Source: an uncultured Halobacteriales archaeon (GTDB lineage: Archaea > Thermoplasmatota > E2 > JACPAO01 > JAHWKR01). Taken from it: DNA of 64,000 bases. Location: the NCBI GenBank assembly GCA_964452895.1, contig CAYVRY010000001.1, forward strand, positions 525 through 64,524. The letters are read 5' to 3'. The translations under genes were made by a program, and so were the position numbers. The notes beneath the pieces are model-generated. The model was not told where the DNA came from. It did no database searches and saw only the letters and a list, made by a program, of their open reading frames with translations. This document shows, in pieces, positions 9,723 to 60,213 of this stretch. Each line of letters starts with the position of its first letter. The stretch's first letter is position 1.

Positions 9723-9754
9723 AACCTCAAACCCCGGTCAGTCAGGAGCTTATA

Positions 9755-9771: not shown

Positions 9772-9825
9772 GTAAAAAGGTCGCTTGTCGGGTCCCTTTA
9801 AACGTTCTCGGAGTGGGGGACCTCC

Positions 9826-21086: not shown

Positions 21087-21120
21087 TGCATTCCCTCGCG
21101 TGTGCCGGACCACCAAAAAG

Positions 21121-21160
21121 GTAGACCGACCGACATATTCAGTAGACCGACCGTCATATT
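21121..21160. promoter_or_regulatory. two 19-bp direct repeats (GTAGACCGACCGACATATT / GTAGACCGACCGTCATATT): candidate TetR operator overlapping TATA box
   Basis: The repeats are seen directly at 21121-21139 and 21142-21160, in the 102-bp divergent intergenic region between the hydrolase (-) and TetR (+). The second repeat runs into the TATTTAATAG box about 28 nt before the TetR ATG. Confidence 0.5.
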
Positions 21161-21188
21161 TAATAGCTTTGTCACCCCATTGACTTTC

Positions 21189-33066: not shown

Positions 33067-34364
33067 TTCGCGACCACCTCCCGTACGATCAATCGTTCCA
33101 GGGGCGTCCGTGCGGGGTCCCAGTCGATCACGCGCACGCCGCGCCGGCGGATGTCCTGGTATGCGGCGCGGGCGGCGGTCTGCAAGACGGCGGCGGTGAT
33201 GGGGTGATGGCCGCTTGCCAGGGTGTGTGCGACGGGTGTGGGGGCGATGAGCAGGATCGGTACGCTGCGCGCGCCGTGCCCGGTGATGGAGCGGATCTGG
33301 GACAAACCGCGGCGCGTGGCGGCGGGGTCGTGTTCGGGTCGGGTGACGAGCAGGACGAGGGGGCGTTCGCGAAGCAGGAACCCGCGCGAGGCGAGAACGG
33401 CGCGGTCCAGCGGGTCGCCGCCCGGATGGGCGGTGAGCGTGGCGAGCGCGCGGGTGAGCCGGCCCAGTTGGCGCGTGCCGACGTCCGGGTAGTAGATGCG
33501 GGTCTCTTTCTGGTGGTAGATCGTGGCGCCGACGCGGTAGCCCCGGTCGAGGAAATGGGAGAGCACGCCGAGGGATCCTTCCAGGGCGTGGTCGAGGGCG
33601 TTCTCGCGTGTGGAGCCCACCTCCATGTGGGCTCCGCCGTCAAGAAAGAGCCATACGCTCTGGCGGCCTTCCGGGACGAATTCGTTGACCATCAGCCGCA
33701 TGTGGTCGTGGCTTTGACGGGCGGTGGCTTTCCAGTTCACGCTGCGCAGGGGGTCGCCGATGTGGTACGGGCGGACTTCTTCGAAGTCGTTCCCGCGCGC
33801 ACCGAGCATGGCGCTGTCGCCGGCGGGTTTCAGGGTGATACCGTGCCCGCGCATGTGGCGCAGGCGCGGGACGCGGCGCACGCGCGGTTCCACGGCGACC
33901 TGGACGTCTTCGCTGAGTTTGCGGGTTTCGCCGGTCTTGAGACGAAGCGGGGAGAGCGCGTGCATTTGGACTCCGCCGAGCGTGGCCGGGCCGCGCGTGT
34001 CCGCGCGCAGGTCGAACCGCAGCCGGGCCCGCAGCGGGCGTGGTCCTTTCCAAAGCAGGTGCAGGTTGGACCCCTTGGCCAGTTGCAGGCGCTCCGGCAG
34101 CGGGATGTGCACCAAGATGGGCCCGACGCCGGAGCGTACATCCAGTTCCACTTGGACGCGCACCGTGTCGCCGATGCGCAGGTGGTTCCGGTCGACGTGC
34201 AAGCGGCCGGTGGCCCCATGGGGAGGCTTGGTGGTGAGCGCGTAGGCGAGCACCCCGCCGACGCTCAGGCCCCACACGATGAGCGGTGCGAGGCCGAGGC
34301 CGAGGCCGAACGCGACGAGCAGGGTCGCAAGAAGCAGGATCACCATGGCACGATGGGCGATCAC
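33063..34364 (-). CDS. DUF58 (vWA-like) domain protein with N-terminal TM helix
   Basis: DUF58 core SVNWKATARQSHDHMRLMVNEFVPEGRQSVWLFLDGGAHMEVG... Confidence 0.75.
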   Translation of the reverse strand: MIAHRAMVILLLATLLVAFGLGLGLAPLIVWGLSVGGVLAYALTTKPPHGATGRLHVDRNHLRIGDTVRVQVELDVRSGVGPILVHIPLPERLQLAKGSNLHLLWKGPRPLRARLRFDLRADTRGPATLGGVQMHALSPLRLKTGETRKLSEDVQVAVEPRVRRVPRLRHMRGHGITLKPAGDSAMLGARGNDFEEVRPYHIGDPLRSVNWKATARQSHDHMRLMVNEFVPEGRQSVWLFLDGGAHMEVGSTRENALDHALEGSLGVLSHFLDRGYRVGATIYHQKETRIYYPDVGTRQLGRLTRALATLTAHPGGDPLDRAVLASRGFLLRERPLVLLVTRPEHDPAATRRGLSQIRSITGHGARSVPILLIAPTPVAHTLASGHHPITAAVLQTAARAAYQDIRRRGVRVIDWDPARTPLERLIVREVVAK

Positions 34365-35587
34365 GTCCGGACCTCCGCGTTGAGTAGTCCGTCGCGCAGC
34401 AGCTTGACGAGGCCTTGTTCGCGCGCGCGACGGGCCCAGGGCCAGCGGGGCAATCTGCGCAGGTGGTCTTCGATCCGTTTCGTGCTGGCCTCCTCATCGG
34501 CTTCCTGCAGGAGGAGTGCGATCTGTTCGGCGAGGTCCTTGCGGGCAGCGCCCAGGCTCAGGAACCGTTCGATGGCGTCGTCCAGGCGATGCAGGCGTTC
34601 ATCGGGGATCGTGGCGATGCGGCTTTCGTGCCGGCGCATGGCGACTGGACCGGGGAGGGCGCGGGGATGCGCGGTGCCGCCGCGCGCCATGAGCGCGCGG
34701 GAGACCAGGGGGAGGGACGCCACGAGCGCGGCCCAGGCGATGGGCGCGGTGAGCGGGAGCCCGGGCGCGACCACGAGCAGGATGACGAGCAGGCCTCCCA
34801 GTGTGACGATCAGGGTGAGCATCCCACCGGGCGGTTGCACGGTGCCGGCGGGCAGGTCCAGGGGCGCCGTGTGTCCGGGGGCCGCGGCCGCGGTCGTCTC
34901 GGTATGTTCTGCCTGCTGCCGGGCTTGTCGGACGGACCAGGGTGGGGCCAGCAGGTGGACGGCCGAAAGCGGCAGGGCCGCCGCGGCGAGCAGGATCGGG
35001 CCGGGGTCGTTCCAGACGAGGATGACGATGAGCAGGCTGGCGCTGGCCGCAATCCATGCACCGGCGGCGACGATCCGTCGTGCGGGGGCGCCCAATGCGG
35101 CCGCGTGGCGCGCGACGACGAGCGTCGCAAGCGGTGCAGCGAGCAACAGCGGGAAGATGGCGAGTGCGGCGAGCCGGGGCGCATCGAGAAGCGGGACCAG
35201 GAGCCACCAGAAGAGACCCGCGTGGGCGAGTGCCTTGGCGCCCCGTGCGACGAGTTCGGATTCCCAGGTGAGCGGGTTCCATGTGCGCGCGAGCACGCCG
35301 AAGAGGATCAAGGACCCGTAGATCAAGAGGCCGATCCGGCTGGACGCGGCGCCGAAGTGGTCTTGCCAGAACGGCGTGGCATCAAGTAGCGGCGCGAAGA
35401 TGAATGCGGCGGTGAAGAGGGCAGCGAGCACAGCCAGCGAGACGACGGCGCCTTGGCGGGCGTCGTTGCGGTCGCGCGGGTCGTGCGCGCTCTGGCGCGT
35501 TCGGGGTCGCGGGCCCTTTTGTGCGTCCCCGGGGTACCGGCCGGCCGGGTCGAAGCCGTTTTTCATCACGCCTTCATCCCGCGTCAT
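34361..35587 (-). CDS. polytopic membrane protein with C-terminal helical DUF4129-like region (tentative)
   Basis: About 8 TM helices followed by a charged helical tail (RLDDAIERFLSLGAARKDLAEQIALLLQEADEEA...). Starts and stops overlap the neighbouring genes. Confidence 0.45.
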   Translation of the reverse strand: MTRDEGVMKNGFDPAGRYPGDAQKGPRPRTRQSAHDPRDRNDARQGAVVSLAVLAALFTAAFIFAPLLDATPFWQDHFGAASSRIGLLIYGSLILFGVLARTWNPLTWESELVARGAKALAHAGLFWWLLVPLLDAPRLAALAIFPLLLAAPLATLVVARHAAALGAPARRIVAAGAWIAASASLLIVILVWNDPGPILLAAAALPLSAVHLLAPPWSVRQARQQAEHTETTAAAAPGHTAPLDLPAGTVQPPGGMLTLIVTLGGLLVILLVVAPGLPLTAPIAWAALVASLPLVSRALMARGGTAHPRALPGPVAMRRHESRIATIPDERLHRLDDAIERFLSLGAARKDLAEQIALLLQEADEEASTKRIEDHLRRLPRWPWARRAREQGLVKLLRDGLLNAEVRT

Positions 35588-36602
35588 GGCTTGTGGGGCG
35601 ACCGAGTAGCTGGAGTTCCATTTGTTGGGAGGTGGGGCTGGCGGACGGGTTGTATTCCACGTGCAGGGTCAGGTTGCCGGGGGGGATCGGTGCGGGGTCC
35701 TGGTGGTCGATCAGGCTGAGCGGGGCGCTGGAGGTACCGCTTGATTGGGCAGGTTCGCAGTCGCTCTCGGCTTCCGGGTCCTCTTTGGGCACCCAGCAGA
35801 TCAATTGGCCTTCTTCCTCGTGGTAGAGTGTCGCCTGCCATCCCGGGTTGAGCAGGCCTCCTCGCTCGATCTCAAGGCTCAGGTTCTGGTAGTGGGCTTT
35901 CAGTTCGATGTACACGGTCTTCTCGTCGTTGTTCGTCCCTTCGAAGCGCAAGGTGCGCAGGCGATGGGTGATCGTGGCGATGCAGTCTCCGTCGTAGGTC
36001 TCCACGAACCCCGGGGCGCAGGTCGGGGTGGGCACCGGCTCGATGGGGGGGCAGTGGTCCCCGCGCGTTGGGTTGTCTTCGTGGCATTCCGGGTCGATGA
36101 CGCATTCGCCTTCGCCGTCGTCGAAGATCTGCCCGGTGGGACACTCCTCGATGGGTGCGCAGTCCGTCGCGGTCCCGTTGGCTGCAGGCTCGTTATCGCC
36201 GTCCGGGCAGGGGAGGGGTCCATCCGGACAATCGGGGTCCAGGGGGGTCGCTTCGCAGTCCGGTGCCACTTCGTCGCAGACGCTTTCGTCCCGGAACTGC
36301 TCCTGGGTCTCTTCGCACCCGTCCGGCCAGACCAGGATCACGCGACCGTCGGCGTCGACGCGGTAACCGACGTCGTCCGGGATGTTCAGGTCCGAGTCCG
36401 GGCGGATGATGAGCCAATCCACGATCATGGGGGGAAGGAATGCCTCGACGCGTTCGAGCAGCGGAAAATCGTTGAGGGTCTGGGGCTCGTCGAGCGCTTC
36501 GAACTCGAGCAGGCTCGCGTCCCGTACGGTGGCGAGCACCGGGCCGGCGCTGGCGGCCACGAGGAGGGCGGCCACGGCGTAGACGGTGAGCGCGTGCCCC
36601 AT
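35574..36602 (-). CDS. secreted Cys-rich protein (last gene of DUF58 operon)
   Basis: Start at Met60 of the track ORF with signal peptide MGHALTVYAVAALLVAASA. A central region carries about 18 Cys in CP/CE/CD spacing. TATAATAC lies about 28 nt upstream. Confidence 0.5.
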   Translation of the reverse strand: MGHALTVYAVAALLVAASAGPVLATVRDASLLEFEALDEPQTLNDFPLLERVEAFLPPMIVDWLIIRPDSDLNIPDDVGYRVDADGRVILVWPDGCEETQEQFRDESVCDEVAPDCEATPLDPDCPDGPLPCPDGDNEPAANGTATDCAPIEECPTGQIFDDGEGECVIDPECHEDNPTRGDHCPPIEPVPTPTCAPGFVETYDGDCIATITHRLRTLRFEGTNNDEKTVYIELKAHYQNLSLEIERGGLLNPGWQATLYHEEEGQLICWVPKEDPEAESDCEPAQSSGTSSAPLSLIDHQDPAPIPPGNLTLHVEYNPSASPTSQQMELQLLGRPTSHDAG

Positions 36603-36784
36603 CAATCCGGTCCAGCCGCGATGGAGCCTATAATACTTGTTGGGGATGTCGTCGAAATGCCGCCCCCGGCCGTGTGGAAACCGTACAGTGTGCGCTTTCA
36701 GGCCCTGGGGACCGACGGGGCCTGCCTTGCGGGTGCCGGCCGGTGCGGGCGCCCCCATGCGCGAGCGCAGTCCGGGCACAAGGG

Positions 36785-39702: not shown

Positions 39703-40554
39703 CTAGGCGGTGAACTCCAGTTCCATCCCGGGAGACGGTGCGATCCAAGAGTACAGGAACAACCATTTCGTGCCCTCCGGCAACGTCCCGGCGCAGGCAT
39801 CACCACCGTTGTTCAGGTCCGTCCCGAGCGGTTCCAGGTCCTCGTTGAACGCGGTGCAGTCCGTGTCCTGGTAATCCTCGAGGCCGTTGGTCACGCTGAA
39901 GCTGAGGCCCCAGTAGCTCTCGTCGAGTTCCTGCCAGTGTCCGTCGATGGCGGGTTCTTCCGGGCCGAGAAGCGCGGAAACGCACATCAACCCGACTTCT
40001 TCGTCCAGGGCGCCGACGCATCCGAGCGTCGGCTGGTCGTACGTGAACACCAGCTCATCGGGCACGCTTTGGCCTGCCTCGATAGTCAGATCCACCGTCT
40101 CCTCGACGGTCTGGGAGTCTCCGTAGGTGAGCGTGAAGGTCGCCGTGAAGTTGCCGGCGTCATAGCCGTGAACGAGGGAATCCTCACCGTCGGTCACGTC
40201 GCCGTCTTCCGTGGCGCCGTCCCCAAGTGCGAGGCTCCAGGTCGCGTTCTCGTCGTTGGTCTCCACGTCCCATGTGAACGTGACGTTCACGGGCGCGGTC
40301 CCGCTTGTGGGGTCCGCGCTGAAGGATTCAATGGAGGCCGTCCACTCTGCGTCGTCTCCAGGACCCGACGTGTCATCGGGATCCGACGCGTCGTCGGGGT
40401 CCGAGGTGTCACCCGAGTCGTCACCGTCGGTCGCGTCGTCATCGGTCGTGTCTACGGGATCGTCCCCGCCGGAGAGGCACCCAGAGAATACCAAGGCAAA
40501 AAGCATGAGCACGGCGAGGGAGAGTTGGAATCGCATCAAGAGGGCGGCCCGCAT
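39703..40554 (-). CDS. secreted acidic PKD-domain lipoprotein
   Basis: Signal plus lipobox-like LVFSGC; Asp/Thr-rich linker; PKD fold (SADPTSGTAPVNVTFTWDVE...GNFTATFTLTYGDSQ). An oligo-T run on the coding strand (A6 at 39617-39622 on the plus strand) follows its stop. Confidence 0.7.
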   Translation of the reverse strand: MRAALLMRFQLSLAVLMLFALVFSGCLSGGDDPVDTTDDDATDGDDSGDTSDPDDASDPDDTSGPGDDAEWTASIESFSADPTSGTAPVNVTFTWDVETNDENATWSLALGDGATEDGDVTDGEDSLVHGYDAGNFTATFTLTYGDSQTVEETVDLTIEAGQSVPDELVFTYDQPTLGCVGALDEEVGLMCVSALLGPEEPAIDGHWQELDESYWGLSFSVTNGLEDYQDTDCTAFNEDLEPLGTDLNNGGDACAGTLPEGTKWLFLYSWIAPSPGMELEFTA

Positions 40555-40726: not shown

Positions 40727-40799
40727 GGGCCCGTGGTCTAGGGGTTATGACGGCGCCCTTACAAGGCGCAGATCACCGGTTCAAATCCGGTCGGGCCCA
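40727..40799 (+). tRNA. tRNA-Val (anticodon UAC)
   Basis: Folded by hand: acceptor GGGCCCG/CGGGCCC, anticodon stem GCGCC/GGCGC with loop CTTACAA, T-arm ACCGG-TTCAAAT-CCGGT, discriminator A. No encoded CCA. Confidence 0.85.
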
Positions 40800-41294: not shown

Positions 41295-41367
41295 AGCCCC
41301 GTAGTGTAGAGGCCAATCATGGGGGACTCTGGATCCCCCGACCGCGGTTCGAATCCGCGCGGGGCTA
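41295..41367 (+). tRNA. tRNA-Gln (anticodon CUG)
   Basis: Folded by hand: acceptor AGCCCCG/CGGGGCT, anticodon stem GGGGA/TCCCC with loop CTCTGGA, T-arm CGCGG-TTCGAAT-CCGCG, discriminator A. No CCA. Confidence 0.85.
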
Positions 41368-43140: not shown

Positions 43141-44997
43141 GTGCCTTCTTCTCGCCGCGTCTTGTTCTTTCGGCGTTTCGCCGCTGTGACCAACTCCAGC
43201 GCGCGCCAGGCCGCCGACCAGGAGGCTCGTTTGCAGGCCATGCGGTGGACGGAGACCCGCGACGGGAACCGCCGGATCTCGTTGGCCACCTTGCCGGTTC
43301 TGGCGCTGCTCGGTCTCTATCTGCTGGTTTGGCCACCGCCGGATCTGGGGCGGCTGGCGGGCGCCATCGCGCTCGGGATGGCCGGCGTGATCCTCCTCGT
43401 CGTCTTGACGGCCCTGCAGCCCAACAGCGACCCGGGCCTGGCGGTCCCGTTGAGCACGGGAAGTTCCGTGGCCTTGGCCGCGTTGCTCACTGCGTTCCTG
43501 GTGGTCAGTGGCGAACCGGCGGCCGCGGTGGGTCTCTCGCTCGTGGTCGTCGCGGCGGGGGTCTTCATCCTGTCCGTCCCTGCACTCGTGGTGATCGCGC
43601 TCGCGGTCCATGTCGGATTCATGATGGCGGTCGTTCACCATGGTGGCGACACGGCGTGGTTGTTGGCCGGTGCGGGTCTGGTCTTGTCCGTGGTGTTGGC
43701 GGGTCTCGCGCACCACCGGCAGATACGCGTGTTGAAGGCAACGCTTCGCCTGGCGGACCGGGAGCGACGTCATGAGGTGGAGATGGAGAAGGCCTTCCGC
43801 AGATCGCGTGATGCGGAGCTGAACGCGAAGCGGCTTTCCGAGTCGGCTTCGGCCGGGATCCAGGCGCAGCGTGAGCGGGAGGCGTTGCGCGGGCGCATGC
43901 AGTCGATCCTGGACAGTGCGGGGGAAGGGATCATCGGGACGGACCATCAGGGCCGTGTGGTTTTCGTCAATGAGGCGGCCGCCCGGTTGACCGGCTTCCC
44001 GGAGGGTCAACTTGTGCGGGAGAACCTGCATGAACTCGTGCATCATTCCCGTGCAGACGGCTCTGTGTATCCGGCCTCGGAGTGTCCGGTCCGGGAGGTC
44101 CTGGACCGGCGTCGTGTCCGGGAGGTGGAAGGGGAGGTGTTCTGGCATCGCGACGGTTCTTCTTTCCCGGTGTCGTACGTGGCGAGCCCGTTGGTCGAGG
44201 AGGGGAAGGTGCGGGGGGTCGTCGTGGTTTTCCAGGATGTGACGGAACGTGCGGAACTGGAGAAGATGAAGGATGAGCTGGTCAGTGTGGTCAGTCATGA
44301 ACTGCGCACCCCGCTGACCTCGATCCACGGTTCGTTGAAGCTGCTCTCCGGCACCATGAAGGACGCCTTGCCGAAGCAGGGGGCGAAGCTCATCGACATG
44401 GCTTCGCGCAACACGGAGCGTCTGATCCGGCTGGTCAATGACCTGTTGGACCTGGAGCGGCTGCGGGCCGGGCGGTTCGAGATGGCGGTCTCGCCCGTGG
44501 GCACCAGGGAGCTCGCGGTGGAGGCGGTCCAGAGTCTGCAGGGTTTCGCGCACAGCCACGACGTCCGTCTCGTGACCGCCGGGGAGGACGTGACGATCGT
44601 CGCGGACGGACATCGGGTCCATCAGGCTTTGGTGAACCTGATCTCGAACGCGGTGAAGTTCTCCCCGATCGGGGGCACCGTGCGGGTGAGCACCGAGATG
44701 GATCCGGACCGGGTCTGGTTCAGTGTGGTGGACGAGGGACCGGGGATCCCTCGCGACAAACAGAAACAACTGTTCCGGCGGTTCTCCCAGTTGGACGTGG
44801 GCGACGCCCGGGACAAAGGGGGAAGCGGGTTGGGTCTTGCGATCACGCGGGGCATCGTGGAGGCCCACGGCGGACATGTGGGTCTCGTCAGCGAGCCGGG
44901 GAAAGGCAGCACGTTCTACATGATGCTGCCGCGGGAGAACATGGAAACGGGCGAAGACATCCGCGGGGAGGACCCCAACGAGGTGGATGTACAATGA
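43141..44997 (+). CDS. membrane-bound PAS sensor histidine kinase
   Basis: About 6 N-terminal TM helices, a PAS region, H-box HELRTPLTSIHGSLKLL, and N/G1/G2 boxes (LISNAVKFSP...DEGPGIP...GGSGLGLAI). The start may be the ATG near 43240. Confidence 0.85.
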   Translation: MPSSRRVLFFRRFAAVTNSSARQAADQEARLQAMRWTETRDGNRRISLATLPVLALLGLYLLVWPPPDLGRLAGAIALGMAGVILLVVLTALQPNSDPGLAVPLSTGSSVALAALLTAFLVVSGEPAAAVGLSLVVVAAGVFILSVPALVVIALAVHVGFMMAVVHHGGDTAWLLAGAGLVLSVVLAGLAHHRQIRVLKATLRLADRERRHEVEMEKAFRRSRDAELNAKRLSESASAGIQAQREREALRGRMQSILDSAGEGIIGTDHQGRVVFVNEAAARLTGFPEGQLVRENLHELVHHSRADGSVYPASECPVREVLDRRRVREVEGEVFWHRDGSSFPVSYVASPLVEEGKVRGVVVVFQDVTERAELEKMKDELVSVVSHELRTPLTSIHGSLKLLSGTMKDALPKQGAKLIDMASRNTERLIRLVNDLLDLERLRAGRFEMAVSPVGTRELAVEAVQSLQGFAHSHDVRLVTAGEDVTIVADGHRVHQALVNLISNAVKFSPIGGTVRVSTEMDPDRVWFSVVDEGPGIPRDKQKQLFRRFSQLDVGDARDKGGSGLGLAITRGIVEAHGGHVGLVSEPGKGSTFYMMLPRENMETGEDIRGEDPNEVDVQ

Positions 44998-45057: not shown

Positions 45058-45447
45058 ATGGGCATGACGCGGCAGGTATTGATCATTGACGACGACGAGG
45101 ACATCCGGGAAGTTGCGAAGATGGCGCTGGAGGCCACCACCACATGGGGGGTCCGGGCCTTGGCGGACGGGCCGTCCGGGCTGGAGGCGGCCCGTGCGGA
45201 TCCACCGGATGCGATCCTTCTGGATTACATGATGCCGGGCATGGACGGGCTCACGGCGCTGGGTGAATTGAAGAAGAACGACTCGACGCGGCACGTCCCG
45301 GTGGTCGTGTTCACCGCGAAATCGGAACCGGGGCTCGCCCAGCGGCTGCACGACGCCGGGGCGATCGGGCACGTGGTCAAGCCGTTCGATCCCATGAGCT
45401 TGGCCGAGAAACTGGAGGGACTCTTGGGTTGGAACCGCGAGCGTTGA
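45058..45447 (+). CDS. single-domain CheY-like response regulator receiver
   Basis: VLIIDDDEDIRE...DAILLDYMMPGMDG...VVFTAK...KPF. Confidence 0.85.
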   Translation: MGMTRQVLIIDDDEDIREVAKMALEATTTWGVRALADGPSGLEAARADPPDAILLDYMMPGMDGLTALGELKKNDSTRHVPVVVFTAKSEPGLAQRLHDAGAIGHVVKPFDPMSLAEKLEGLLGWNRER

Positions 45448-47993
45448 AAAAACTTCATACGACCGATGGGGCTCGCACGGAGAAGAGGCCGGGGCCGGAC
45501 CGGGTCCCGCCCGCGTTGGTCCCACTGTGGCAGCGGGCCCGTGGGAGCATGCAGGGACGCCTTGGCGTGTTGCAAAGCGCTTTGGCGGAACTGGAAAACG
45601 GCGGCATTTCCATCGGGACCCGGGAAGCGGCGATCCGGGAGTCGCACAAACTCGCCGGCAGCCTCGGTACCTACGGCCTCTTGCACGGCTCGGAAGTTGC
45701 GCGGGAGATTGAAGAGCGTCTTGAGCACGATGCACTGGTCCGCGCGGATTCACCCTGGTTGCGCGCCCGCGTCGAACGGATTCAGCAGCTGCTCGAGGAA
45801 GCCGGGGGCCAAGGCACGCCGCAGCGCGCCCCTGGGGACACCGGACCCCCACCCGTTTCCCTGGGCGGGCCCACCCCTGTGCACTGGGACCCGGAACATC
45901 CCACGCCGGGAACCGTGCATGCGGACGGGGCCACGACGGAGGATCGCCGGCAGACACCGGCCGCCCGCCGCGCCCCGGTGGAGGCGCACCATGGCCGGGG
46001 GCCGCTGGCGCGCTTTCTTCGCAGTGTGTTGGAGGACCTGGTGGAGCAGGAAGCCTTCGTAGCGAAGCTGATTCGCGCCTCTGGACACGGTTCCCCCCAA
46101 GAACCGCAGTTGGCCACCCGGGCGGCCAGGGCCGCTGCGCTGGCGCAGGCGGAAGAGGGACTTGCCGGTTTGTCAAGGCGGTTGCAGCGCATCGGTCTGG
46201 ACCGCCCGGCGCATCAGGCCCGGTTGTTGGCCGCCTGCTTCAAGCCGGGCATGAAAAGCTCCGAGGCGGTGCACGTGGCGAAGGGGCTTCTTGAGTTGGT
46301 GCGGTCGTTGACGCGGTGGTGCCCTGAGATCCCAGCGCGATGGGACGACGCCTTGGTCTGGGTCGTCTCCAGGGATCCCGACTGGCGCGATGAAATGGGG
46401 GCGGCGTTGGAGGCCATGGGGCAACGCGTGATGCTGTCGGCCCAGGCGCACGACGCGGGTTTGTGGATGCAGACGAAGAGACCCACGGGCGTCGTCGCGC
46501 ACGCGGCTGACCCGGGCGATTCACTGGGCCTGCCTGACGGTCTTCTGGGGCCGGCTGGAGGGTTGCCGATCCTCGTCGTCTTGGACCAGCCGGGAATCGA
46601 CGACCGGGTACGTGCCGCGCGCGCGGGCGCCCACCGGGTCGTGGAGCGCGCCGCTGCACCCCGGGAGATCGCCACCACGTTCCGCGATCTGGTGCAGTCG
46701 CGTCAACGTACGGGGGGCCGGGTGCTCGTCGTGGACGACGATGAGACGATCGTTTCCATGGTGCGGGAGGTACTGGTCTGGCACGGCTTCGAGGTCACGG
46801 CGGTGGTGGGGACACACCGAATCTGGGATGCATTGGAGTCTTGTTCCCCGCATTTGGTGGTCACCGATCTGAACATGCCCGGCATCGACGGCGTGGACCT
46901 CTGCCTGGCCTTGCGCACGGACCCGCGCTGGGAGAACCTGAGCGTGGTGTTCTTGTCCGCCCGCGATGACGAACAGAGTCTGCGGCGGGTGTTCGAAGCG
47001 GGAGCGGACGATTTCGTGCCGAAACCTGTGGACCCGGCGGTCCTGGTGGCACGGGTGCAGAACCGGTTGGCCCGGAAGAACGCGCGCATGGCCACCGGCC
47101 ATCTTGACCCGGTGACCCGTTTGCCGGCCGGACCGTCCTTCGAGGATCGGCTGAAGGGTCTTGTGGAGACGTCGGCCAAGGAGCACTCCAGGATCACCAT
47201 CGCCGTGGTGCGGCTTGATTCGGCGTCGCGTCTGCGCCAGGAGGTCGGGTACGTGGCCACCGAGCGCGAGGAGGCGCGTCTGGCTCGGGTGCTTGCGGCT
47301 CACCTGGAGGTCGGTTCCTTGGTGGGCCGGTTGGACATGGATCGGTTCGTGGTGGCACTGGACGGCATGGATGCCCAGGATGCGAAGAAGACGCTGCGGC
47401 TCGTGGTGGAAGAGTTCCAGGCGGCGCGGATGCGCGCCGGGCAAGAGTCCTTGACCGGGGCGGGTGTTTCCGCTGGGGTCGCGCAACGTTCGCTCCATGG
47501 CAGGGACCTGCGTGAGCTCATGGATCAAGCGGACGCGGCGCGCCGACACGCGGAACAGGCGGGGGGCTCGCGGGTCCACATCGCGGGCGGGGAAGGGCAA
47601 GGCCGTCCCGTCGAGAAGGTGGATGTGCTCGTCGTGGACGACGACCCCACCATCGGGCATCTGCTCGTGGAGACGTTGAGCCAGAAAGGCTGGCGGGTCT
47701 CATGGGAGTGCGACAGTGCGCGAGCACTCAAGCGCCTGGCCGGTGAACATCGTGACCTGAAGGCCCGCGTGATCCTTCTGGATGTGAACATGCCCGGGAT
47801 GGACGGTCTCACGGTGCTCCGGTTGTTGGCGAAGCGGGGGGTGGTGCCCGAGACCCGGGTGATCATGCTCACCGTGCGGGCGCGAGAGGATGAGGTGGTG
47901 CGTGCGTTGGGTCTGGGCGCATCGGACCATGTCGCGAAACCGTTCAGTGTCCCCGTGTTGGCCTCCCGCGTCAAGCGGGCTTTGGAGGATTGA
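45429..47993 (+). CDS. multidomain phosphorelay protein: HPt - pseudo-receiver - REC - degenerate GGDEF - REC
   Basis: HPt motif ESHKLAGSLGTYGLL. REC1 VLVVDDDETIV...VVTDLNMPGIDG...KP. GGDEF fold with DPVTRLP...ITIAVVRLD...GRLDMDRFVVAL...ADAARRHAEQAGGSRV, where GRLDMDRF replaces RYGGEEF. REC2 VLVVDDDPTIG...LLDVNMPGMDG...KPF. The TTG start overlaps the CheY stop (alternative ATG at 45549). Confidence 0.75.
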   Translation: MEPRALKKLHTTDGARTEKRPGPDRVPPALVPLWQRARGSMQGRLGVLQSALAELENGGISIGTREAAIRESHKLAGSLGTYGLLHGSEVAREIEERLEHDALVRADSPWLRARVERIQQLLEEAGGQGTPQRAPGDTGPPPVSLGGPTPVHWDPEHPTPGTVHADGATTEDRRQTPAARRAPVEAHHGRGPLARFLRSVLEDLVEQEAFVAKLIRASGHGSPQEPQLATRAARAAALAQAEEGLAGLSRRLQRIGLDRPAHQARLLAACFKPGMKSSEAVHVAKGLLELVRSLTRWCPEIPARWDDALVWVVSRDPDWRDEMGAALEAMGQRVMLSAQAHDAGLWMQTKRPTGVVAHAADPGDSLGLPDGLLGPAGGLPILVVLDQPGIDDRVRAARAGAHRVVERAAAPREIATTFRDLVQSRQRTGGRVLVVDDDETIVSMVREVLVWHGFEVTAVVGTHRIWDALESCSPHLVVTDLNMPGIDGVDLCLALRTDPRWENLSVVFLSARDDEQSLRRVFEAGADDFVPKPVDPAVLVARVQNRLARKNARMATGHLDPVTRLPAGPSFEDRLKGLVETSAKEHSRITIAVVRLDSASRLRQEVGYVATEREEARLARVLAAHLEVGSLVGRLDMDRFVVALDGMDAQDAKKTLRLVVEEFQAARMRAGQESLTGAGVSAGVAQRSLHGRDLRELMDQADAARRHAEQAGGSRVHIAGGEGQGRPVEKVDVLVVDDDPTIGHLLVETLSQKGWRVSWECDSARALKRLAGEHRDLKARVILLDVNMPGMDGLTVLRLLAKRGVVPETRVIMLTVRAREDEVVRALGLGASDHVAKPFSVPVLASRVKRALED

Positions 47994-47994
47994 T

Positions 47995-49080
47995 ATGACC
48001 GGGGTACTGGATGACGTCCTGCATTTGGCGGTCGTGGTGATCATCGCCGGGGCGACGGTTGCGTTCCTGCTCGTTTTCCTCCATGGTTGGCGTGAACAAA
48101 GAGACCGGGTACATTATGCGCGCGTGGAGGTGAAGCTGCGCGGCCCGTTCTTGTTGGCGATCCAGGGTGAGCGGCACGAGGCGGGGCTGGACTCACGGCT
48201 GAACAGGGTGCCGGTCCGGCATCGAACTCGCCTCTTGATGCAGGTGGCACGGCTTGTCCGGGGTGAAGAGCGTGCCCGGCTGACGCGTTTCGCGGCGCGC
48301 ACGGGGGTCTTGCAACAGGCGGCCCGGGCGACAAGGAGCAGCCTATGGTGGCGCCGGTTGCACGCGGTGCGGGTCTTCACGGCGACGGGGGGCGGCGAGA
48401 ATGAGGTGCCGGCCTTGTTGGCGGACCCGCATCCGCTGGTGCGCTCGGAGGCGGCCTCTTGGTGCGCCGGGCATCCGCGCCCGGAGAACATCCGGCGCTT
48501 GCTGAACCTGATGGACACGCCGTCCATGGCGGACCGGATCGCGGTGATCGACGCACTCGTGTCCATTGGGCCTCCGGCGCTCAGACCGTTGGCCGATCAT
48601 CTCCAGGCGTGCACCGAAGAGGGGCGCAAGGCGGGCCTGACGGCAGCGTTGGGGTTGGCGCACCCGCTCTTTTTGCCCCCTGCGCTGGCCGCGGTCCGGG
48701 ACCCGGCGTTCGGCGTACGCGTGCAGGCGGCGCGGTTGTTGTCCATTCTGGGCGGGGAACAAGCGGTGGAGGCGATCACTCGGCTCCTTGAGGACGACCG
48801 GCCGGTGGTCCGGGCGGCCGCGGCACGGGGCCTGGGGCGACTGGGGGCTTGCTCGGCGGCGGGCAGTCTTGAGTTGCTGTTGGCGGATCGGCATCCGGAC
48901 CCGCGTCGCGACGCGGCGCTCGCCCTGGCGGAGTTGGGCGCATCGGGCTGGGTGTTGCTGCGGGAGACCGCCCGCCTGGGGGGCCCGGCGGGGCGGTTGG
49001 CCAATGCGGCCCTGGAATCGCTGGGTACGCCGGTACGGGTGCTTGAGCCGGTGGAAGTAGAGGGGAGGGCGGCGTCTTGA
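47995..49080 (+). CDS. membrane-anchored HEAT/PBS-lyase-repeat protein
   Basis: ATG 2 nt after the previous stop. N-terminal TM helix (LHLAVVVIIAGATVAFLLVFL) followed by several HEAT-like repeats (DPHPLVRSEAASW, DPAFGVRVQAARLL, DDRPVVRAAAARGLGRLG, HPDPRRDAALALAELG). Confidence 0.6.
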   Translation: MTGVLDDVLHLAVVVIIAGATVAFLLVFLHGWREQRDRVHYARVEVKLRGPFLLAIQGERHEAGLDSRLNRVPVRHRTRLLMQVARLVRGEERARLTRFAARTGVLQQAARATRSSLWWRRLHAVRVFTATGGGENEVPALLADPHPLVRSEAASWCAGHPRPENIRRLLNLMDTPSMADRIAVIDALVSIGPPALRPLADHLQACTEEGRKAGLTAALGLAHPLFLPPALAAVRDPAFGVRVQAARLLSILGGEQAVEAITRLLEDDRPVVRAAAARGLGRLGACSAAGSLELLLADRHPDPRRDAALALAELGASGWVLLRETARLGGPAGRLANAALESLGTPVRVLEPVEVEGRAAS

Positions 49081-50818: not shown

Positions 50819-51259
50819 TCAGCCCATCTCTTCGACCACGAACCACACGTCGCCCCGGCCTTGCCCGTTGGCGGCTCCGGGTCCTTGGTCCGCGGCGAAA
50901 TAGTAGAGCGGCCGGTCGTCATGCGCGACCTGCATGGTCCCGTTCCGGTCGATCAGCGACAGGCGCTCTTCGAGTCCGTCGGATGCGTCCGGGACCTCAT
51001 CGGCAAGAAGCGGGGGCCAGTTCTCGGCGCATTCGTCGAAGCAGGTGCTCTCGCCGGGTCCGTCGTTCGTGAAGATGTAGAGCGTCATCCCGTCACCATC
51101 GACGAGGATGCTGCCCAGTTCGGAGTGGTCGTCGAAGCGCAGTTCAGCCGCATCGCCGCCGTCCATGCATCCTGCCAGTGCCACGAACGCAAGCAGGAGG
51201 ACGATCAGGAGGGGAAAGTGGACCCAGGAGTTCGTGCTCAATCGCATGCCTGACGGCAT
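50819..51259 (-). CDS. COG4315-type (secreted repeat) lipoprotein
   Basis: Lipobox LAGC. Two copies of the repeat G(D)GMTLY(I/Y)F..D.GPG(E/A)S.C...C...WPP (GDGMTLYIFTNDGPGESTCFDECAENWPP; RPLYYFAADQGPGAANGQGRGDVWFVV). Confidence 0.6.
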   Translation of the reverse strand: MPSGMRLSTNSWVHFPLLIVLLLAFVALAGCMDGGDAAELRFDDHSELGSILVDGDGMTLYIFTNDGPGESTCFDECAENWPPLLADEVPDASDGLEERLSLIDRNGTMQVAHDDRPLYYFAADQGPGAANGQGRGDVWFVVEEMG

Positions 51260-51337: not shown

Positions 51338-53668
51338 TCAGGATTTCGCGGCCCGGATCACGTTCAATGCGCTGCCGGCCTGGAACCAGCGCACCTGGTC
51401 TTCGTTCAGGCTGTGGTCCACGTTGAAGGTGTCGCGCGTGCCGTCCGGGTGTTCCAGGGTGACCTTGAGCGGTCTGCCGGGGGCGAGCCCGTCCAGGCCC
51501 TGGATGGAGACCGTGTCGCCTTCTTGCACTTTCTCGTAATCCGCGCCGTCTTCGAAGGTCAAGGGCAAGACGCCTTGTTTCTTCAGGTTCGTCTCGTGGA
51601 TCCGGGCGAAGCTGCGTGTGATCACGGCGGCGCAGCCCAAGTGGCGGGGTTCCATGGCGGCGTGTTCCCGGGACGACCCTTCGCCGTAGTTCTCGTCGCC
51701 CACCACGACCCAGCGCTGGCCTGCCATTTTCAGGTTGCGCGCGATCTGGCTCAATGCAACGTCTTCTCGGCCGCCTACGGGGTCGTTGCCGGTTCCTGCT
51801 TCACCGGTGAAGGCGTTGACGGCGCCGCTGAAGAGGTTGTCGCTGATGTTGTCCAGGTGACCACGGAAGCGCAGCCAGGCACCGGCCGGGGAGATGTGGT
51901 CTGTGGTGCATTTGCCCTGGGCTTTGAGAAGAAGCGGCAGCCGCTTCATGTCCTGGCCGTCCCACTGCGGGAAGGGTTCCAACAGGGCGATCCGGTCGCT
52001 TCGTGGGTCCACGTGGACGTCCACCTGTGCCCCGTCGTCGGCGGGGGGTTGGTAGCCTGCAGGGTCCTGCACGAAGCCGCCGGGCGGCACCTCGGGGGCG
52101 GGTTTGGGCGGCACGAGGCGCCAGGGTTTGCCGTCGGCGTCCTTGAGTTCGTCGCTGGTGGGGTCGAAATCGAGTCGGCCGGCGAGCCCGAGGGCCATGA
52201 CGATCTCGGGGCTGCCCATGAAGGCGAGCGTGTTCGGGTTGCCGTCGTTGCGTTTCGGGAAGTTGCGGTTGTAGGAGGTGACGATCACGTTGGTCGCGTC
52301 GTCCTTGAGTTCCGGGCGTCGCCATTGTCCGATGCAGGGCCCGCATGCGTTGGCGAGCACCTGCGCGCCGACGGCCTTCATTTTCTGCATCTGGCCGTCG
52401 CGTTCAATGGTTGCCCGCACCTGTTCGCTGCCTGGGGTCACGAGGAAGGAGGTGGCCACACCGATCCCGTGCGCCTGGGCTTGTTGCACGACGTCCGTGA
52501 CGCGGGCGATGTCTTCGTAGCTGGAGTTCGTGCAGGAGCCCACCAGTGCCGCACTGATCCGGGCCGGGTAGTCCTCCTCGCGCACCGCTTTCTTGATCTG
52601 GCTGATCTCGCGGGCCAGGTCCGGTGTGTGGGGGCCCACCAGGTGGGGTTCCAGTTCGTCCAGGTCGATCACGACGACGCGGTCGTAGTAGCGCTCCGGG
52701 TTTTCGGCGATCTGTTTGTCCGCGATGATGTGGTCTTGGTGGTCCTCGAGGATCGGCACGAGGGCGTTGCGGCCCGTTGATTCCAGGTAGGTGCGCATGC
52801 GGCGATCGTACGGGAATATGGAGGTGGTGGCGCCGAGCTCGGCGCCCATGTTCGTGATCGTGCCTTTGCCGGTGGCGCTGATGGACTCGGTGCCGGGTCC
52901 GAAGTATTCCACCACGTGGTTCGTGCCGCCCTTGACGGTGAGTTCGCCGCACAGTTTCAGGATCACGTCCTTGGGGGCGCTCCAGCCGTCGAGTTTTCCT
53001 TCCAGCCGGACGCCGGTGATCTTCGGGTGAAGCAGTTCCCAGGGCATCCCGGCCATGACGTCCACGGCGTCCGCACCGCCGACGCCGCTGGCCCACATGC
53101 CGAGCCCGCCGGCGTTCGGGGTGTGGCTGTCGGTCCCGATCATCATCTGCCCGGGAAAGGCGTATTGCTCGAAGACCACCTGGTGGATGATCCCGGCGCC
53201 GGGTTTCCAGAACCCCATGCCGTAGCGTTTCGCGGCCGTGGCGAGGAAATCGAAGACCTCCTTGTTCTCGCCCAGGGAGTTGCTCAGGTCGGGCTCGGCG
53301 CCTTCCTGCGCACGGATCAGGTGGTCACAGTGGACCGTGGTGGGGACCGCGGTGGTGTCCATCTTGGCGAGCATGAACTGCAGCACGGCCATCTGCGCGG
53401 TCGCGTCCTGCATGGCGACGCGGTCCGGGCGCAGCATGAGGTAGCTCTTGCCTCGTTCCAGGGCGGCCCCGGCGGGGTCGTCCAAGTGGCCGTAGAGGAT
53501 CTTCTCGCTCAGGGTGAGCGGATGACCCAGGCGTTCGCGCACGACCTGCAGACGCTGGGCGATCCGTTCGTGGACTTGACGGGTGAAATCGGGGGTGGAT
53601 TCGACTTGAGGCATGGGGCCCTCTCCGGGTCCAGGCGCCCATCCGGATGGGCGGTCGCTGGCAGTCAC
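51338..53668 (-). CDS. aconitate hydratase (aconitase/IRP family)
   Basis: Conserved blocks GIIHQVVFEQYAFPG, MIGTDSHTPNAGGLG and VGSCTNSSYEDI, with SR at the C-terminal substrate-binding site. 776 aa. Confidence 0.9.
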   Translation of the reverse strand: MTASDRPSGWAPGPGEGPMPQVESTPDFTRQVHERIAQRLQVVRERLGHPLTLSEKILYGHLDDPAGAALERGKSYLMLRPDRVAMQDATAQMAVLQFMLAKMDTTAVPTTVHCDHLIRAQEGAEPDLSNSLGENKEVFDFLATAAKRYGMGFWKPGAGIIHQVVFEQYAFPGQMMIGTDSHTPNAGGLGMWASGVGGADAVDVMAGMPWELLHPKITGVRLEGKLDGWSAPKDVILKLCGELTVKGGTNHVVEYFGPGTESISATGKGTITNMGAELGATTSIFPYDRRMRTYLESTGRNALVPILEDHQDHIIADKQIAENPERYYDRVVVIDLDELEPHLVGPHTPDLAREISQIKKAVREEDYPARISAALVGSCTNSSYEDIARVTDVVQQAQAHGIGVATSFLVTPGSEQVRATIERDGQMQKMKAVGAQVLANACGPCIGQWRRPELKDDATNVIVTSYNRNFPKRNDGNPNTLAFMGSPEIVMALGLAGRLDFDPTSDELKDADGKPWRLVPPKPAPEVPPGGFVQDPAGYQPPADDGAQVDVHVDPRSDRIALLEPFPQWDGQDMKRLPLLLKAQGKCTTDHISPAGAWLRFRGHLDNISDNLFSGAVNAFTGEAGTGNDPVGGREDVALSQIARNLKMAGQRWVVVGDENYGEGSSREHAAMEPRHLGCAAVITRSFARIHETNLKKQGVLPLTFEDGADYEKVQEGDTVSIQGLDGLAPGRPLKVTLEHPDGTRDTFNVDHSLNEDQVRWFQAGSALNVIRAAKS

Positions 53669-53741: not shown

Positions 53742-54779
53742 TCAACCGGTCTGGATGATCCCTTCGTATTCCATGTTCACCCCAAGATGGTGCGACACGC
53801 GCAGGGTGAGCGTCTCTCCCTGGTAGGGACTCAGGCTGTCGCCCACGAGCCACAATTGTTCGAAGGGGTACGGGGTGACGCCCCAGGTGATGGTTTCGCC
53901 TTTCGGGTCCATGAGCGTCATGTCCATGTCCACGGTGTGCCCGTTTGTGTCCATGATCCCGCCGTCCCCCCGGGGTTGCACGAAGGCGAGAAGCACCTGG
54001 TCGTTCTCTCCCACCTCGATCTCGTGATCGGCATGGGTCATGCCCGAATCGGGGACCCCGGTAAGGAACCGATCCGAAAGCAGGAGTTCCCCGGAGATCG
54101 TCTGGTTCTCGAGGACCAGCTGCCCCTGGATGTCCAGGTCTGCGGGTCGGAACTCCTTGGTCTCCAGTTGGACTTCGGATGCGTGTTCTCCCCCCGTGAG
54201 GATGCGCACGTTGTGCTCTTCCTGTTGGGTCATGGTCACGGTGACGAACAAGGTGATCCCGCCCAGGCCCAGGATGGCCGGCTGCGATTCGGGTCCCTCC
54301 AGTTCGAAGGATACGGGTGTGACCTCGTCCGGCATCAGGGGGCCGTCCAGCTTCGTCGAGGCGACAAGGGGGGCGTGCAGGCTGCTGCCCAGCCAGACCG
54401 CCACGTCGGGGAGCACGCCTTCGGCCGGGAAGACGGGGGCGTCCGTGGTGAGGTAGAGGGTGATCGTGGCGTTGTCCGCGGAGATCCAGTCCCAGGGACT
54501 CAGTTCGGGGTCGAACCCTTCCAGGTTGAACTGCGGGTGGGCGCCGCTGCGGGTGGCCCACTTCGTGATGAAGTCGCCGGCCTCGATGCTTCCTTCCCCT
54601 TGCGGCGCCTGTTCGACCAGCGTCGAGTCGGGGCTCAGGTAGAGCGTACGCGGGGCGAACGACGACGCGGGGGGTTGCGTGGGATCGTTTTCGCCGCCAT
54701 CGTTGTTGGAGGTCGAGAAGCAACCGGCGAGGCTGACCAGGATCAAGAGCGAGACCAACAGGCCGGCCGTAACACGCAT
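53742..54779 (-). CDS. hypothetical lipoprotein (LAGC lipobox)
   Basis: MRVTAGLLVSLLILVSLAGCFSTSNNDGGEND... with unbiased composition. The overlapping ORFs in other frames are Arg/Gly-rich. Confidence 0.5.
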   Translation of the reverse strand: MRVTAGLLVSLLILVSLAGCFSTSNNDGGENDPTQPPASSFAPRTLYLSPDSTLVEQAPQGEGSIEAGDFITKWATRSGAHPQFNLEGFDPELSPWDWISADNATITLYLTTDAPVFPAEGVLPDVAVWLGSSLHAPLVASTKLDGPLMPDEVTPVSFELEGPESQPAILGLGGITLFVTVTMTQQEEHNVRILTGGEHASEVQLETKEFRPADLDIQGQLVLENQTISGELLLSDRFLTGVPDSGMTHADHEIEVGENDQVLLAFVQPRGDGGIMDTNGHTVDMDMTLMDPKGETITWGVTPYPFEQLWLVGDSLSPYQGETLTLRVSHHLGVNMEYEGIIQTG

Positions 54780-59298: not shown

Positions 59299-60213
59299 TC
59301 AGCCGCCTTGACCGGTCTCGTTCTCACCTTGATCGCCGGATTGGTCACCGGTCTGGTTGCCGTCTTCAATGCCGGTCTCCTCTTCGCCTTCCGGAAGACC
59401 GCTCTCGTCGTCCGACTGGTCCTGGCGCGGGTCGTCCTCCACATCCTCGGTGACCTGGGCCTTGCCGATCACGGGGGTCATCCGCCAGCCATGCGGGTCG
59501 TGCGGGGGCCCTTGCGGGCGCACGCTGCGGTCCAGGTCGATGTCGATCACCACCTGGGTGGTGCTGTCCGCGTTCACGTCGAAGCTCTTGACCACTTTGA
59601 CGGGGCTGTTGACGACGGCGATCTCTTCGCGTTCCCCGTCGTCGGCGCGGATCCCCCATGCCTGGCTGATGTGAAGACGGATCTGCGTGTACTTGCCGGC
59701 TTGCAACTCCGCCTCGCCGAGGAACGCTTTGCTGTCGTTTTCGGAGAATGACATGAGGTCCAGATCGCGCGGGGTGTCCACGACGAGCGTCCAACCGCCC
59801 CGCGATCCGTCGCCATCCGCGGTCTCATTGTCCCCTTCATTCTCTGTCTCGTTGTCCCCGTGCGTCGCGGTCTCATTGTCTGCTTCAGCCTCTGTCTCGT
59901 TGTCCCCCTCGGTCGCGGTCTCGTTGTCCTCGAAGACGCTCTGGGTTTCGGTGGCGGTCTCGTTGTCCTCCGGGTCCGCTTCGTCGTCTCCGGTGCCGTT
60001 CACGCTGCCCGGTGCGATATGGACCTCCACTTGTTCAATGGAGACCCAGATCTCGGAGAAGTCGTCCGTTGCGGCGTCCTTGACGTACATGGTGACGGTG
60101 CCTGTCTCGGCGTCTTCGTCGTCCGACCGATCGGGATCCGCCATGCATCCTGCCAGGGATGTTGCGACGAACGCGAGAAGCACGAGTATCGTAAGGGAGC
60201 GAATTCGGTTCAT
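59299..60213 (-). CDS. DUF4382-family lipoprotein with tandem N-glycosylation-sequon repeats
   Basis: LAGC lipobox. DUF4382 blocks (TVTMYVKDAATDDFSEIWVSIEQVEVH; GKYTQIRLHIS; VVNSPVKVVKSFDVNADSTTQVVIDIDLDRS). A central run of six DNETATEG-like 8-aa repeats each contains N-E-T. Confidence 0.65.
   Translation of the reverse strand: MNRIRSLTILVLLAFVATSLAGCMADPDRSDDEDAETGTVTMYVKDAATDDFSEIWVSIEQVEVHIAPGSVNGTGDDEADPEDNETATETQSVFEDNETATEGDNETEAEADNETATHGDNETENEGDNETADGDGSRGGWTLVVDTPRDLDLMSFSENDSKAFLGEAELQAGKYTQIRLHISQAWGIRADDGEREEIAVVNSPVKVVKSFDVNADSTTQVVIDIDLDRSVRPQGPPHDPHGWRMTPVIGKAQVTEDVEDDPRQDQSDDESGLPEGEEETGIEDGNQTGDQSGDQGENETGQGG
59821..59970. repeat. 24-nt tandem repeat (about 6 copies, GTCTCGTTGTCC(C/T)C core) inside the DUF4382 gene
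   Basis: Seen directly; encodes the NET-sequon repeats. Confidence 0.6.

Follow-up and report, generated by a model that had tools for sequence, protein, structure and literature searches.

PleD of Caulobacter joins a true and a degenerate receiver (REC) domain with a C-terminal GGDEF domain and is active, carrying both a GGEEF signature and the RxxD motif of the inhibitory site (I-site). PopA is a REC-REC-GGDEF protein. In PssE of Listeria (PMC4125290) and YdaK of Bacillus (PMC5422440), a degenerate GGDEF protein activates the glycosyltransferase of its own exopolysaccharide operon, and the non-catalytic GGDEF domain of PelD is an I-site receptor (PMC7112168). Cyclic di-GMP (c-di-GMP) is undetected in any archaeon (PMC8646023, PMC10249747). 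Complete archaeal genomes hold no GGDEF response regulators and those in drafts are doubted; drafts of 'Candidatus Micrarchaeum' contain a protein of uncertain authenticity that pairs a REC domain with an inactivated GGDEF domain (Galperin et al., 2018, PMC5847659). Of the GGDEF proteins in archaea, Romling writes that they 'need to be confirmed in archaeal contigs' (PMC10086821). Here we analyse a response regulator encoded in a 64,000-nt stretch (the window) of contig CAYVRY010000001.1 from an uncultured archaeon. It carries a degenerate GGDEF domain between two receivers and lies in a five-gene operon with a PAS histidine kinase, a stand-alone receiver, a HEAT-repeat protein and a family 2 glycosyltransferase (GT2). 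We consider it fairly probable that the GGDEF domain is a pseudo-enzyme, kept as a structural or interaction module in a phosphorelay regulator that controls polysaccharide synthesis, and that the block was acquired from bacteria.

The regulator resembles each of these systems in part. PleD entries are the best structural match of its whole model (9g85, 2v0n, 1w25), and one orthologue has been labelled 'PleD family' by annotators of the Joint Genome Institute (JGI). Unlike PleD, however, the archaeal protein lacks both GGEEF and RxxD, places its pseudo-receiver before the true receiver, and has an N-terminal histidine phosphotransfer (Hpt) domain and a C-terminal second REC. It scores 147.4 bits with the NCBIfam PleD model NF007135 against a cut-off of 474 and is thus not a PleD equivalog. 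The closest functional analogy is with PssE and YdaK, in which a catalytically dead GGDEF domain is likewise encoded beside a GT2-type synthase. Those proteins are membrane-anchored, have no receiver or Hpt domain and depend on RxxD to bind c-di-GMP, whereas the archaeal regulator is soluble, lacks RxxD, is wired into a phosphorelay and has a HEAT partner that is absent from the Pss and Yda systems. PelD and PopA also use a GGDEF domain without catalysis as an output or recruitment module, but they bind c-di-GMP through RxxD, so that the messenger is their input; the input of the archaeal regulator can only be phosphorylation. The Micrarchaeum protein likewise joins an inactive GGDEF output to a response regulator of an archaeon. 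It comes from another phylum, has a simpler, WspR-like layout and has been reported with no synteny or operon, whereas the authenticity of the window locus is backed by five syntenic assemblies. Host domain, loss of both nucleotide sites and a phosphorelay-HEAT context set the regulator apart from the known degenerate GGDEF regulators of polysaccharide synthesis.

Fold and nucleotide sites of the GGDEF domain

The Pfam profile PF00990 aligns to residues 558–714 of the regulator over positions 2–160 of 161 (E=6.2e-14, 52.5 bits against a gathering cut-off of 23.8), and phmmer matches diguanylate cyclases among the PDB sequences, down to E=7e-10. In the AlphaFold model, the domain has predicted local distance difference test (pLDDT) values mostly of 80–92 and shows the β-α-α-β-β-α-β-α-β order of the palm-like fold. 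It superposes on 6tts_A with a template-modelling (TM) score of 0.86 and a root-mean-square deviation (rmsd) of 2.5 Å. Foldseek against the PDB aligns isolated GGDEF domains with TM scores of 0.8–0.86 and rmsd values of 2.3–3 Å, and its matches include PleD (top, E about 1e-20), WspR and DgcB. Profile, PDB matches and superposition thus bear out, far beyond chance, an earlier note, made from the letters of the window, that had described a degenerate GGDEF domain embedded between two receivers. The blocks quoted there all occur in the open reading frame (ORF): DPVTRLP at residues 560–566, ITIAVVRLD, GRLDMDRFVVAL at residues 633–644 and ADAARRHAEQAGGSRV. The PF00990 alignment and the structure prediction that the note had proposed were both run; the former is significant and spans the profile, and the latter recovers the GGDEF fold. 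The start that it gave, 47104, is one base out of frame, and 47104–47590 read in frame 1 gives stops; the domain occupies 47100–47588. This shift is a small slip and not a matter of substance.

The model of the full-length regulator (mean pLDDT 80.3) resolves seven parts, and the predicted layout is Hpt, helical insert, pseudo-receiver, REC1, dead GGDEF and REC2 (Table 1). The protein sequence is on record in NCBI as an exact match (P0001), encoded on a 78,427-bp contig. Pfam PF01627 recognises the Hpt domain at residues 34–123 (E=1e-6, 29.2 bits against a cut-off of 24.6), and its H73, in the motif HKLAGS, does not vary among 16 family members and reaches 90% conservation or more among 150. 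Response_reg matches two stretches of the regulator (E=5e-52). Conservation of D436, D437, D480 and K532 in REC1 is at least 90% each in the same 150 members, and REC2 is the best conserved region of the regulator, with 69–86% identity across the archaeal orthologues. The pseudo-receiver gives a weak but full-length match to Response_reg (E=0.14, profile positions 3–108 of 111), and its acceptor position in the window protein is a His instead of an Asp (VVAHAAD), which leaves its set of receiver residues incomplete. Only the window protein shows this His; two orthologues (L001 and L002) retain Asp at this position.

Table 1. Operon genes, regulator domains and altered nucleotide sites in the window. 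Identities are between archaeal subclades; aa, residues of the regulator.
Feature	Coordinates	Strand	Basis	Identity
Sensor histidine kinase: N-terminal membrane region, PAS, HisKA, HATPase_c	43141..44997	+	Pfam	
Stand-alone receiver, 129 aa	45058..45447	+	Pfam Response_reg, E=4e-26	
Multidomain response regulator, 854 aa, holds the degenerate GGDEF	45429..47993	+	ORF list	
Hpt four-helix bundle, aa 28–126, His73 in ESHKLAG	45510..45806	+	Pfam PF01627 and model helices	49–57%
Archaeal-clade insert: disordered linker, aa 129–188, and second four-helix bundle, aa 192–296	45813..46316	+	model	12–32% (linker and insert)
Pseudo-receiver, aa 309–426	46353..46706	+	(β/α)5 pattern in model; weak Response_reg match	30–41%
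REC1, aa 431–556, intact DD436/437, D480, S, K532	46719..47096	+	Pfam Response_reg, stretch 432–544	64–78%
Degenerate GGDEF, aa 558–720	47100..47588	+	Pfam PF00990, PDB alignments, Foldseek	37–45%
R595-L596-D597, replacing the D-x-D of the metal-binding Asp	47211..47219	+	alignment to 5m3c_A, family table	
E627-V-G-S630 at the RxxD I-site position, motif absent	47307..47318	+	PDB and family alignments	
D636-M-D-R-F640 in place of the GG[DE]EF hairpin	47334..47348	+	alignment to solved cyclases	
REC2, aa 729–853, intact DDD, D785 (LLDVNMPG), T, K	47613..47987	+	second Response_reg stretch; model	64–78%
HEAT-repeat protein, 361 aa, membrane-anchored, with a single hydrophobic helix at the N terminus	47995..49080	+	Pfam HEAT_2, E=2e-21	
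Processive GT2 synthase, 476 aa, C-terminal membrane helices	49077..50507	+	Pfam Glyco_tranf_2_3, E=1e-25	

In an alignment of the 150 family members, the insert region spans 166–177 residues in three archaeal members alone and about 35–85 in the others. A Pfam search of this clade-specific insert gave no match, and the idea of a second Hpt domain was set aside, as it has no profile support. The insert bundle is the fastest-evolving folded part of the regulator (20–32% identity).

Nearly all residues that contact the nucleotide in active cyclases are replaced. The D-x-D region aligns to 5m3c_A as FIDLDRFKHIND versus VVRLDSASRLRQ, and the longer HMMER alignment to 5m3c pairs FIDLDRFKHINDSLGHPIGD (5m3c) with VVRLDSASRLRQEVGYVATE. 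The active-site hairpin aligns as VARLGGDEFIILL versus VGRLDMDRFVVAL and the last helix as ADAAMYRAKSRGRSRI versus ADAARRHAEQAGGSRV, with AEQAGG in the window protein against AKSRGR. In PleD-equivalent numbering, based on the PleD structure, the metal ligand D327 is Arg and K332 is Ser; the guanine ligands N335 and D344 are Arg and Glu; G368, G369 and E371 of the hairpin are Asp, Met and Arg; and the phosphate-binding K442 and R446 are Glu and Gly. Of the canonical site, only R366 (R634) and E370 (Asp638), the first acidic position in the motif, survive. I-site receptors carry RxxD five residues before the GGDEF position; the window protein reads LEVGS there and has no RxxD. The change of GG to DM and the missing I-site had both been noticed earlier, and the argument for loss of cyclase activity gains from the many metal, guanine and phosphate ligands that are replaced besides. 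Cyclase activity and classical I-site binding of c-di-GMP have, on this strong sequence argument, very probably been lost; c-di-GMP could conceivably still bind at a non-canonical site. The suggestion that the domain acts as a nucleotide or protein-interaction module holds up in its second half: with hardly any nucleotide contact left, the former site is unlikely to bind nucleotides, and we favour a role in interaction or scaffolding.

If the domain were still a nucleotidyl cyclase, with a site of unorthodox make-up, this could explain why the palm-like fold is intact and why D638 and the preceding R634 are kept. To our knowledge, changing GG alone, or the acidic pair alone, is enough to inactivate every cyclase studied, PleD and WspR included. 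The archaeal domain lacks the hairpin glycines, the second ligand of the metal, the two residues that recognise the base and the two basic residues that bind phosphate, and we regard residual enzyme activity as scarcely credible.

Loss of both motifs recurs in the orthologues, which come from JGI metagenomes (L001, L083), NCBI assembly GCA_964599105.1 (L002) and Logan assemblies (L169, L170). Four orthologues assembled independently of the window share its reading frame, a similar length and [DE]xDRF. Counting the window, all five archaeal proteins carry [DE]xDRF (DSDRF or ELDRF in the other four) and none has RxxD, the I-site position in the other four reading SPGL/ASPG-type, ASGA, NTGA or GAGG. 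R-L-R is invariant at the K-x-x-N position, and 38 of the 163 GGDEF positions are invariant over the five, among them a 13-residue N-terminal block, GH.DP.TRLP.G. Identity of the domain among orthologues is 37–67%, compared with 12–29% for the linker. We used identity per domain in place of the ratio of nonsynonymous to synonymous substitutions because L001 and L083 are identical in the domain and the other pairs are too diverged. A frameshift or sequencing error, which the earlier note had named among the things that could undo its claim, is ruled out by the intact frame and the concordant orthologues. Judged by these sequences, the GGDEF domain is neither a frameshift product nor freely drifting. 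When metagenomes were scanned with patterns derived from this domain of the archaeal proteins, no match was confirmed.

The domain might still be an inert spacer or relic that survives because REC1 and REC2 need it to fold or to keep their distance, and that is drifting towards loss. It is the least conserved recognisable signalling domain of the regulator (37–45% between subclades versus 64–78% for the RECs), and catalytic loss is widespread and varied in the family, in which 52 of 150 members are fully canonical; both suggest relaxed constraint. The frame, however, is intact and free of notable indels in five lineages whose overall identity is down to about 47%, the domain is present in every orthologue, its model is confident and its 38 invariant positions contrast with the unconstrained parts of the regulator, which show 12–29% identity and vary in length. 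We therefore hold an inert relic to be unlikely.

Rebuilding of the cleft for another ligand, such as a different nucleotide, c-di-AMP or the nucleotide-sugar substrate of the GT2, would make the domain a repurposed sensor. R601, R603, D638, R639 and F640 are invariant in all five archaeal orthologues, R634 is retained from the canonical site and four of the five keep E709. GTP-binding examples of degenerate GGDEF domains exist. Others hydrolyse ATP (YybT, cited in PMC8646023), and c-di-AMP occurs in archaea (PMC10249747); such cases are precedents for a rebuilt pocket. On the other hand, the residues that hold base, phosphate and metal are all changed, several by charge reversal, and three of the replaced positions vary over the orthologues (595 is R/R/A/A/A, 636 D/D/E/E/E and 637 M/S/L/L/L). 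Salt bridges inside the domain, which fill the empty site, would account for the paired opposite charges equally well, and no known binding motif was recognised in the former cleft. A repurposed sensor is thus a doubtful, if conceivable, alternative.

The operon and its archaeal host

The informative context of the domain, beyond the view of the earlier note, is an operon that is shared with bacteria. The order kinase, single REC, regulator, HEAT, GT2 is kept in all of L001, L002, L083, L169 and L170 and in the bacterial locus L086. The kinase has PAS (E=1.7e-18), HisKA (E=6e-18) and HATPase_c (E=1e-28) domains and the H-box SHELRTPL, and it lacks a receiver of its own; a PAS kinase stands at the equivalent position in L001, L002 and L083. 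The stand-alone receiver, presumably the first phospho-acceptor of the relay, has a single-domain REC counterpart in all the family loci inspected, and its gene there immediately precedes that of the regulator. The HEAT gene begins one base past the regulator stop codon, and the GT2 gene overlaps it by 4 bp. The HEAT protein is 54–57% identical to its counterparts in L001 and L002 and 34–39% to that in L086; for the GT2 the values are 78% in L001 and 54% in L086. With the motifs DAD, GED and QRDRW and membrane helices, the GT2 is of the processive type to which cellulose, PNAG and chitin synthases belong, and Glyco_trans_2_3 is also matched. Its best NCBIfam match, PgaC_IcaA (TIGR03937), reaches 140.5 bits, below the cut-off of 422, so that it is not assigned as an equivalog.

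The operon lies among archaeal housekeeping genes. An aIF-2/eIF5B gene 24 kb upstream of it (17369–19252; TIGR00491, 679 bits against a cut-off of 555) has its nearest named relatives, at 55–70% identity, in Euryarchaeota and in metagenome-assembled genomes (MAGs) of Thermoplasmata, and an AlaXM-type editing protein is encoded 3.6 kb upstream. GC content (0.62–0.69) and codon-position GC, including third positions, are uniform over the window. In L083, the operon is preceded by PurA, FKBP, AlaXM and DUF454 genes that match 36.6–43.1 kb of the window; PurA is 80% identical between the two, and DUF454 adjoins the kinase in both. Downstream, L169 carries a lipoprotein, an aconitase, two unknown genes and an FAA hydrolase that match 50.8–56.6 kb, and the GT2 adjoins the lipoprotein and aconitase in L169 and L170.

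Contamination by bacterial DNA, with the operon mis-joined to archaeal sequence in a chimeric contig or mis-binned with it, deserves attention because regulator, HEAT protein and GT2 alike have only bacterial proteins as distant relatives and because published surveys voice doubt about archaeal GGDEF genes (PMC5847659, PMC10086821). The housekeeping junctions, however, are repeated in assemblies from different samples (L083; L169 and L170), the window contig carries aIF-2/eIF5B and the AlaXM-type protein, and its GC content is uniform. A chimeric contig is ruled out because identical junctions recur in independent assemblies, and contamination in any form is very improbable. As judged from these sequences, the locus occupies the same chromosomal place in five independent assemblies and is vertically inherited in an archaeal host related to Thermoplasmatota, which makes it a well-supported case of an archaeal GGDEF protein. 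A GGDEF domain is indeed unusual for an archaeal signalling protein, as had been supposed at the outset: the host is archaeal, and such response regulators are reported absent from complete archaeal genomes (PMC5847659).

Bacterial relatives and origin of the module

A profile search of 1.84 billion representatives for the Hpt-REC'-REC-GGDEF(-REC) family, where REC' is the pseudo-receiver, returned 150 or more clusters (50% identity level) whose full-length matches exceed 620 bits. Among 150 aligned members, GG[DE]E is present in 60, all ten catalytic positions in 52 and RxxD in 99. Degeneracy of the active site is, in these alignments, a habit of the family, which lowers the surprise of the archaeal finding. 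It is ordinary in itself; what is worthwhile is the archaeal setting and the uncharacterised bacterial parent.

A metagenome scan seeded with the HEAT protein found 80 loci (L089–L168), mostly from soil. A GT2 lies downstream of HEAT in essentially all loci with room for it, and a GGDEF regulator lies directly upstream in 43 of the 51 with room. The 49 HEAT-linked regulators with a complete domain include four with a canonical active site and 47 with RxxD, and all these counts are inflated by near-identical soil lineages (the W.GGADF group). A clear pattern remains: the bacterial regulator linked to HEAT and GT2 is probably an I-site c-di-GMP receptor analogous to PssE and YdaK, as its retained RxxD suggests. 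The archaeal clade, which has lost the I-site as well, stands at the extreme. In eight HEAT-GT2 loci (L091–L096, L104 and L113) there is room upstream, yet no GGDEF regulator stands directly there; some HEAT-GT2 pairs thus appear to use another regulator or none. A literature search found no description of a system of HEAT, GT2 and GGDEF regulator. The bacterial operon that the archaeal locus exposes, with an I-site-only GGDEF regulator, HEAT and GT2, is common and apparently uncharacterised.

Bacterial family members (P0005 in L086; L098) share the domain order Hpt, REC', REC, GGDEF, REC and the block of kinase, REC and regulator, in part with HEAT and GT2. Their identity to the window proteins is 34–41% for the regulator, 54–56% for the GT2 and 34–39% for HEAT. 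Unlike the archaeal protein, the bacterial HEAT-linked members mostly keep RxxD (47 of 49), a few have a canonical GGEEF, and they lack the helical insert of about 170 residues; their organisms have outer-membrane proteins and c-di-GMP enzymes nearby. On the Gram-negative bacterial contig L086, the GT2 is followed by a YaiO outer-membrane barrel, an unknown 473-residue protein and a GH16 glycosidase (7752–11001), neighbours that hint at a secreted β-glucan-like polymer. The YaiO and GH16 export genes are absent from the archaeal loci.

Relatives of the GT2 fall from 71–78% identity, in a few loci of the archaeal clade, to 59% or less. Those at or below 59% number thousands, and every one named to organism is bacterial (Longimicrobium, Nitrolancea, Pseudomonadota). 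This distribution suggests that the block was transferred from bacteria into the archaeal lineage. A scan of species-representative genomes with the receiver motif [AS]GADD[YFL][VL]xKP yielded 80 unrelated response regulators, the nearest of them cyanobacterial; the motif is generic, and the scan did not return the window's own lineage. Inheritance of the degeneracy from a degenerate bacterial ancestor such as P0005 is not supported, since the nearest bacterial regulators include some with canonical GGEEF (L098, L102). Their presence indicates that the active site and the I-site were both probably lost in, or just before, the archaeal clade.

Proposed role of the domain and other features of the window

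We favour a pseudo-enzyme that serves as a structural or interaction module, and the relay could work as follows. The PAS kinase would phosphorylate the single REC, from which the phosphate would pass to His73 of the Hpt domain and onward to Asp480 of REC1, Asp785 of REC2 or both. All parts for this are present, namely the kinase H-box, the Hpt His and full acceptor pockets in the single REC, REC1 and REC2, and we place moderate trust in the order of transfer. In PleD-like proteins, phosphorylation drives receiver-mediated dimerisation, which pairs two GGDEF domains. With no chemistry left for such a movement to serve, the conserved output can only be a change of surface or oligomeric state, and the REC-GGDEF-REC unit would alter its dimerisation or surface exposure. 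The co-transcribed HEAT protein and GT2 would be the obvious readers of this change. Protein contact would relay it to them and so switch extracellular polysaccharide synthesis, a step in which our trust is again moderate. The bacterial parent regulator, which keeps RxxD, probably senses c-di-GMP, and both nucleotide sites would have been lost in the archaeal lineage. Loss of the making and the sensing site, with fold and operon kept, fits the absence of c-di-GMP in archaea and offers a natural experiment on the roles of GGDEF domains besides nucleotide chemistry. The locus also points to regulated synthesis of an extracellular polysaccharide in a planktonic or sediment lineage of Thermoplasmatota type.

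Several points speak against the module reading and temper it. The receivers on either side are better conserved than the GGDEF domain, so that constraint on the latter is real but modest, and the charged residues R603, D638 and R639 of the former active site, invariant in the archaeal clade, could form a new ligand site. The predicted TM score of the AlphaFold model is 0.41, which makes the inter-domain arrangement unreliable. The link of the regulator to HEAT and GT2 is solely one of gene order, and the bacterial loci that repeat this order are over-counted, as noted above. A Pfam scan of the window ORFs, which cover 64 kb of the genome, found no other GGDEF domain and no EAL, HD-GYP or PilZ domain; diguanylate cyclases or further c-di-GMP receptors may be encoded in the rest of the genome.

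The module reading may be carried one step further, to a proposal that we advance tentatively and hold to be unlikely. A captured c-di-GMP-responsive module would have become a switch driven by phosphorylation only, in which R601, R603, D638 and R639, with E709 in four of the five orthologues, form a new binding surface for the HEAT protein or an archaeal ligand, and the bacterial parent would represent an undescribed class of polysaccharide synthase. If so, the fold of a second-messenger enzyme would have been re-invented, traceably, after crossing the boundary between domains of life, and the combination of I-site-only GGDEF, HEAT and GT2 in bacteria would be a widespread class of synthase under c-di-GMP control.

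Other features of the window were recorded alongside. Two tRNA genes, Val-TAC (40727–40799) and Gln-CTG (41295–41367), both on the plus strand, lie between AlaXM and DUF454 just upstream of the operon; in the corresponding gap of L083, two short unannotated ORFs are called. The aconitase gene (51338–53668, minus strand) matches the 'mitochondrial-type' model TIGR01340 above its cut-off (1046 bits), and not those of AcnA or AcnB. The name is unusual for an archaeal MAG, and the aconitase stands next to the operon in L169 too. A TetR-family regulator (20865–21770) and an RNase H-like RVT_3 protein (9036–9722), both on the plus strand, may be further bacterial-type genes. On the minus strand, 32305–36779 holds four co-directional genes, one with a DUF58 domain and three with no Pfam match, where the GC content of the window is highest (0.69). 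Five predicted lipoproteins or secreted proteins are encoded on the same strand (26049–27833, 39703–40554, 50819–51259, 53742–54779 and 59299–60213). They carry an A-G-C lipobox-like signal and are very acidic, with 14–25% Asp plus Glu and 1–6% Lys plus Arg, an acidity far above that of the cytoplasmic proteins of the window.

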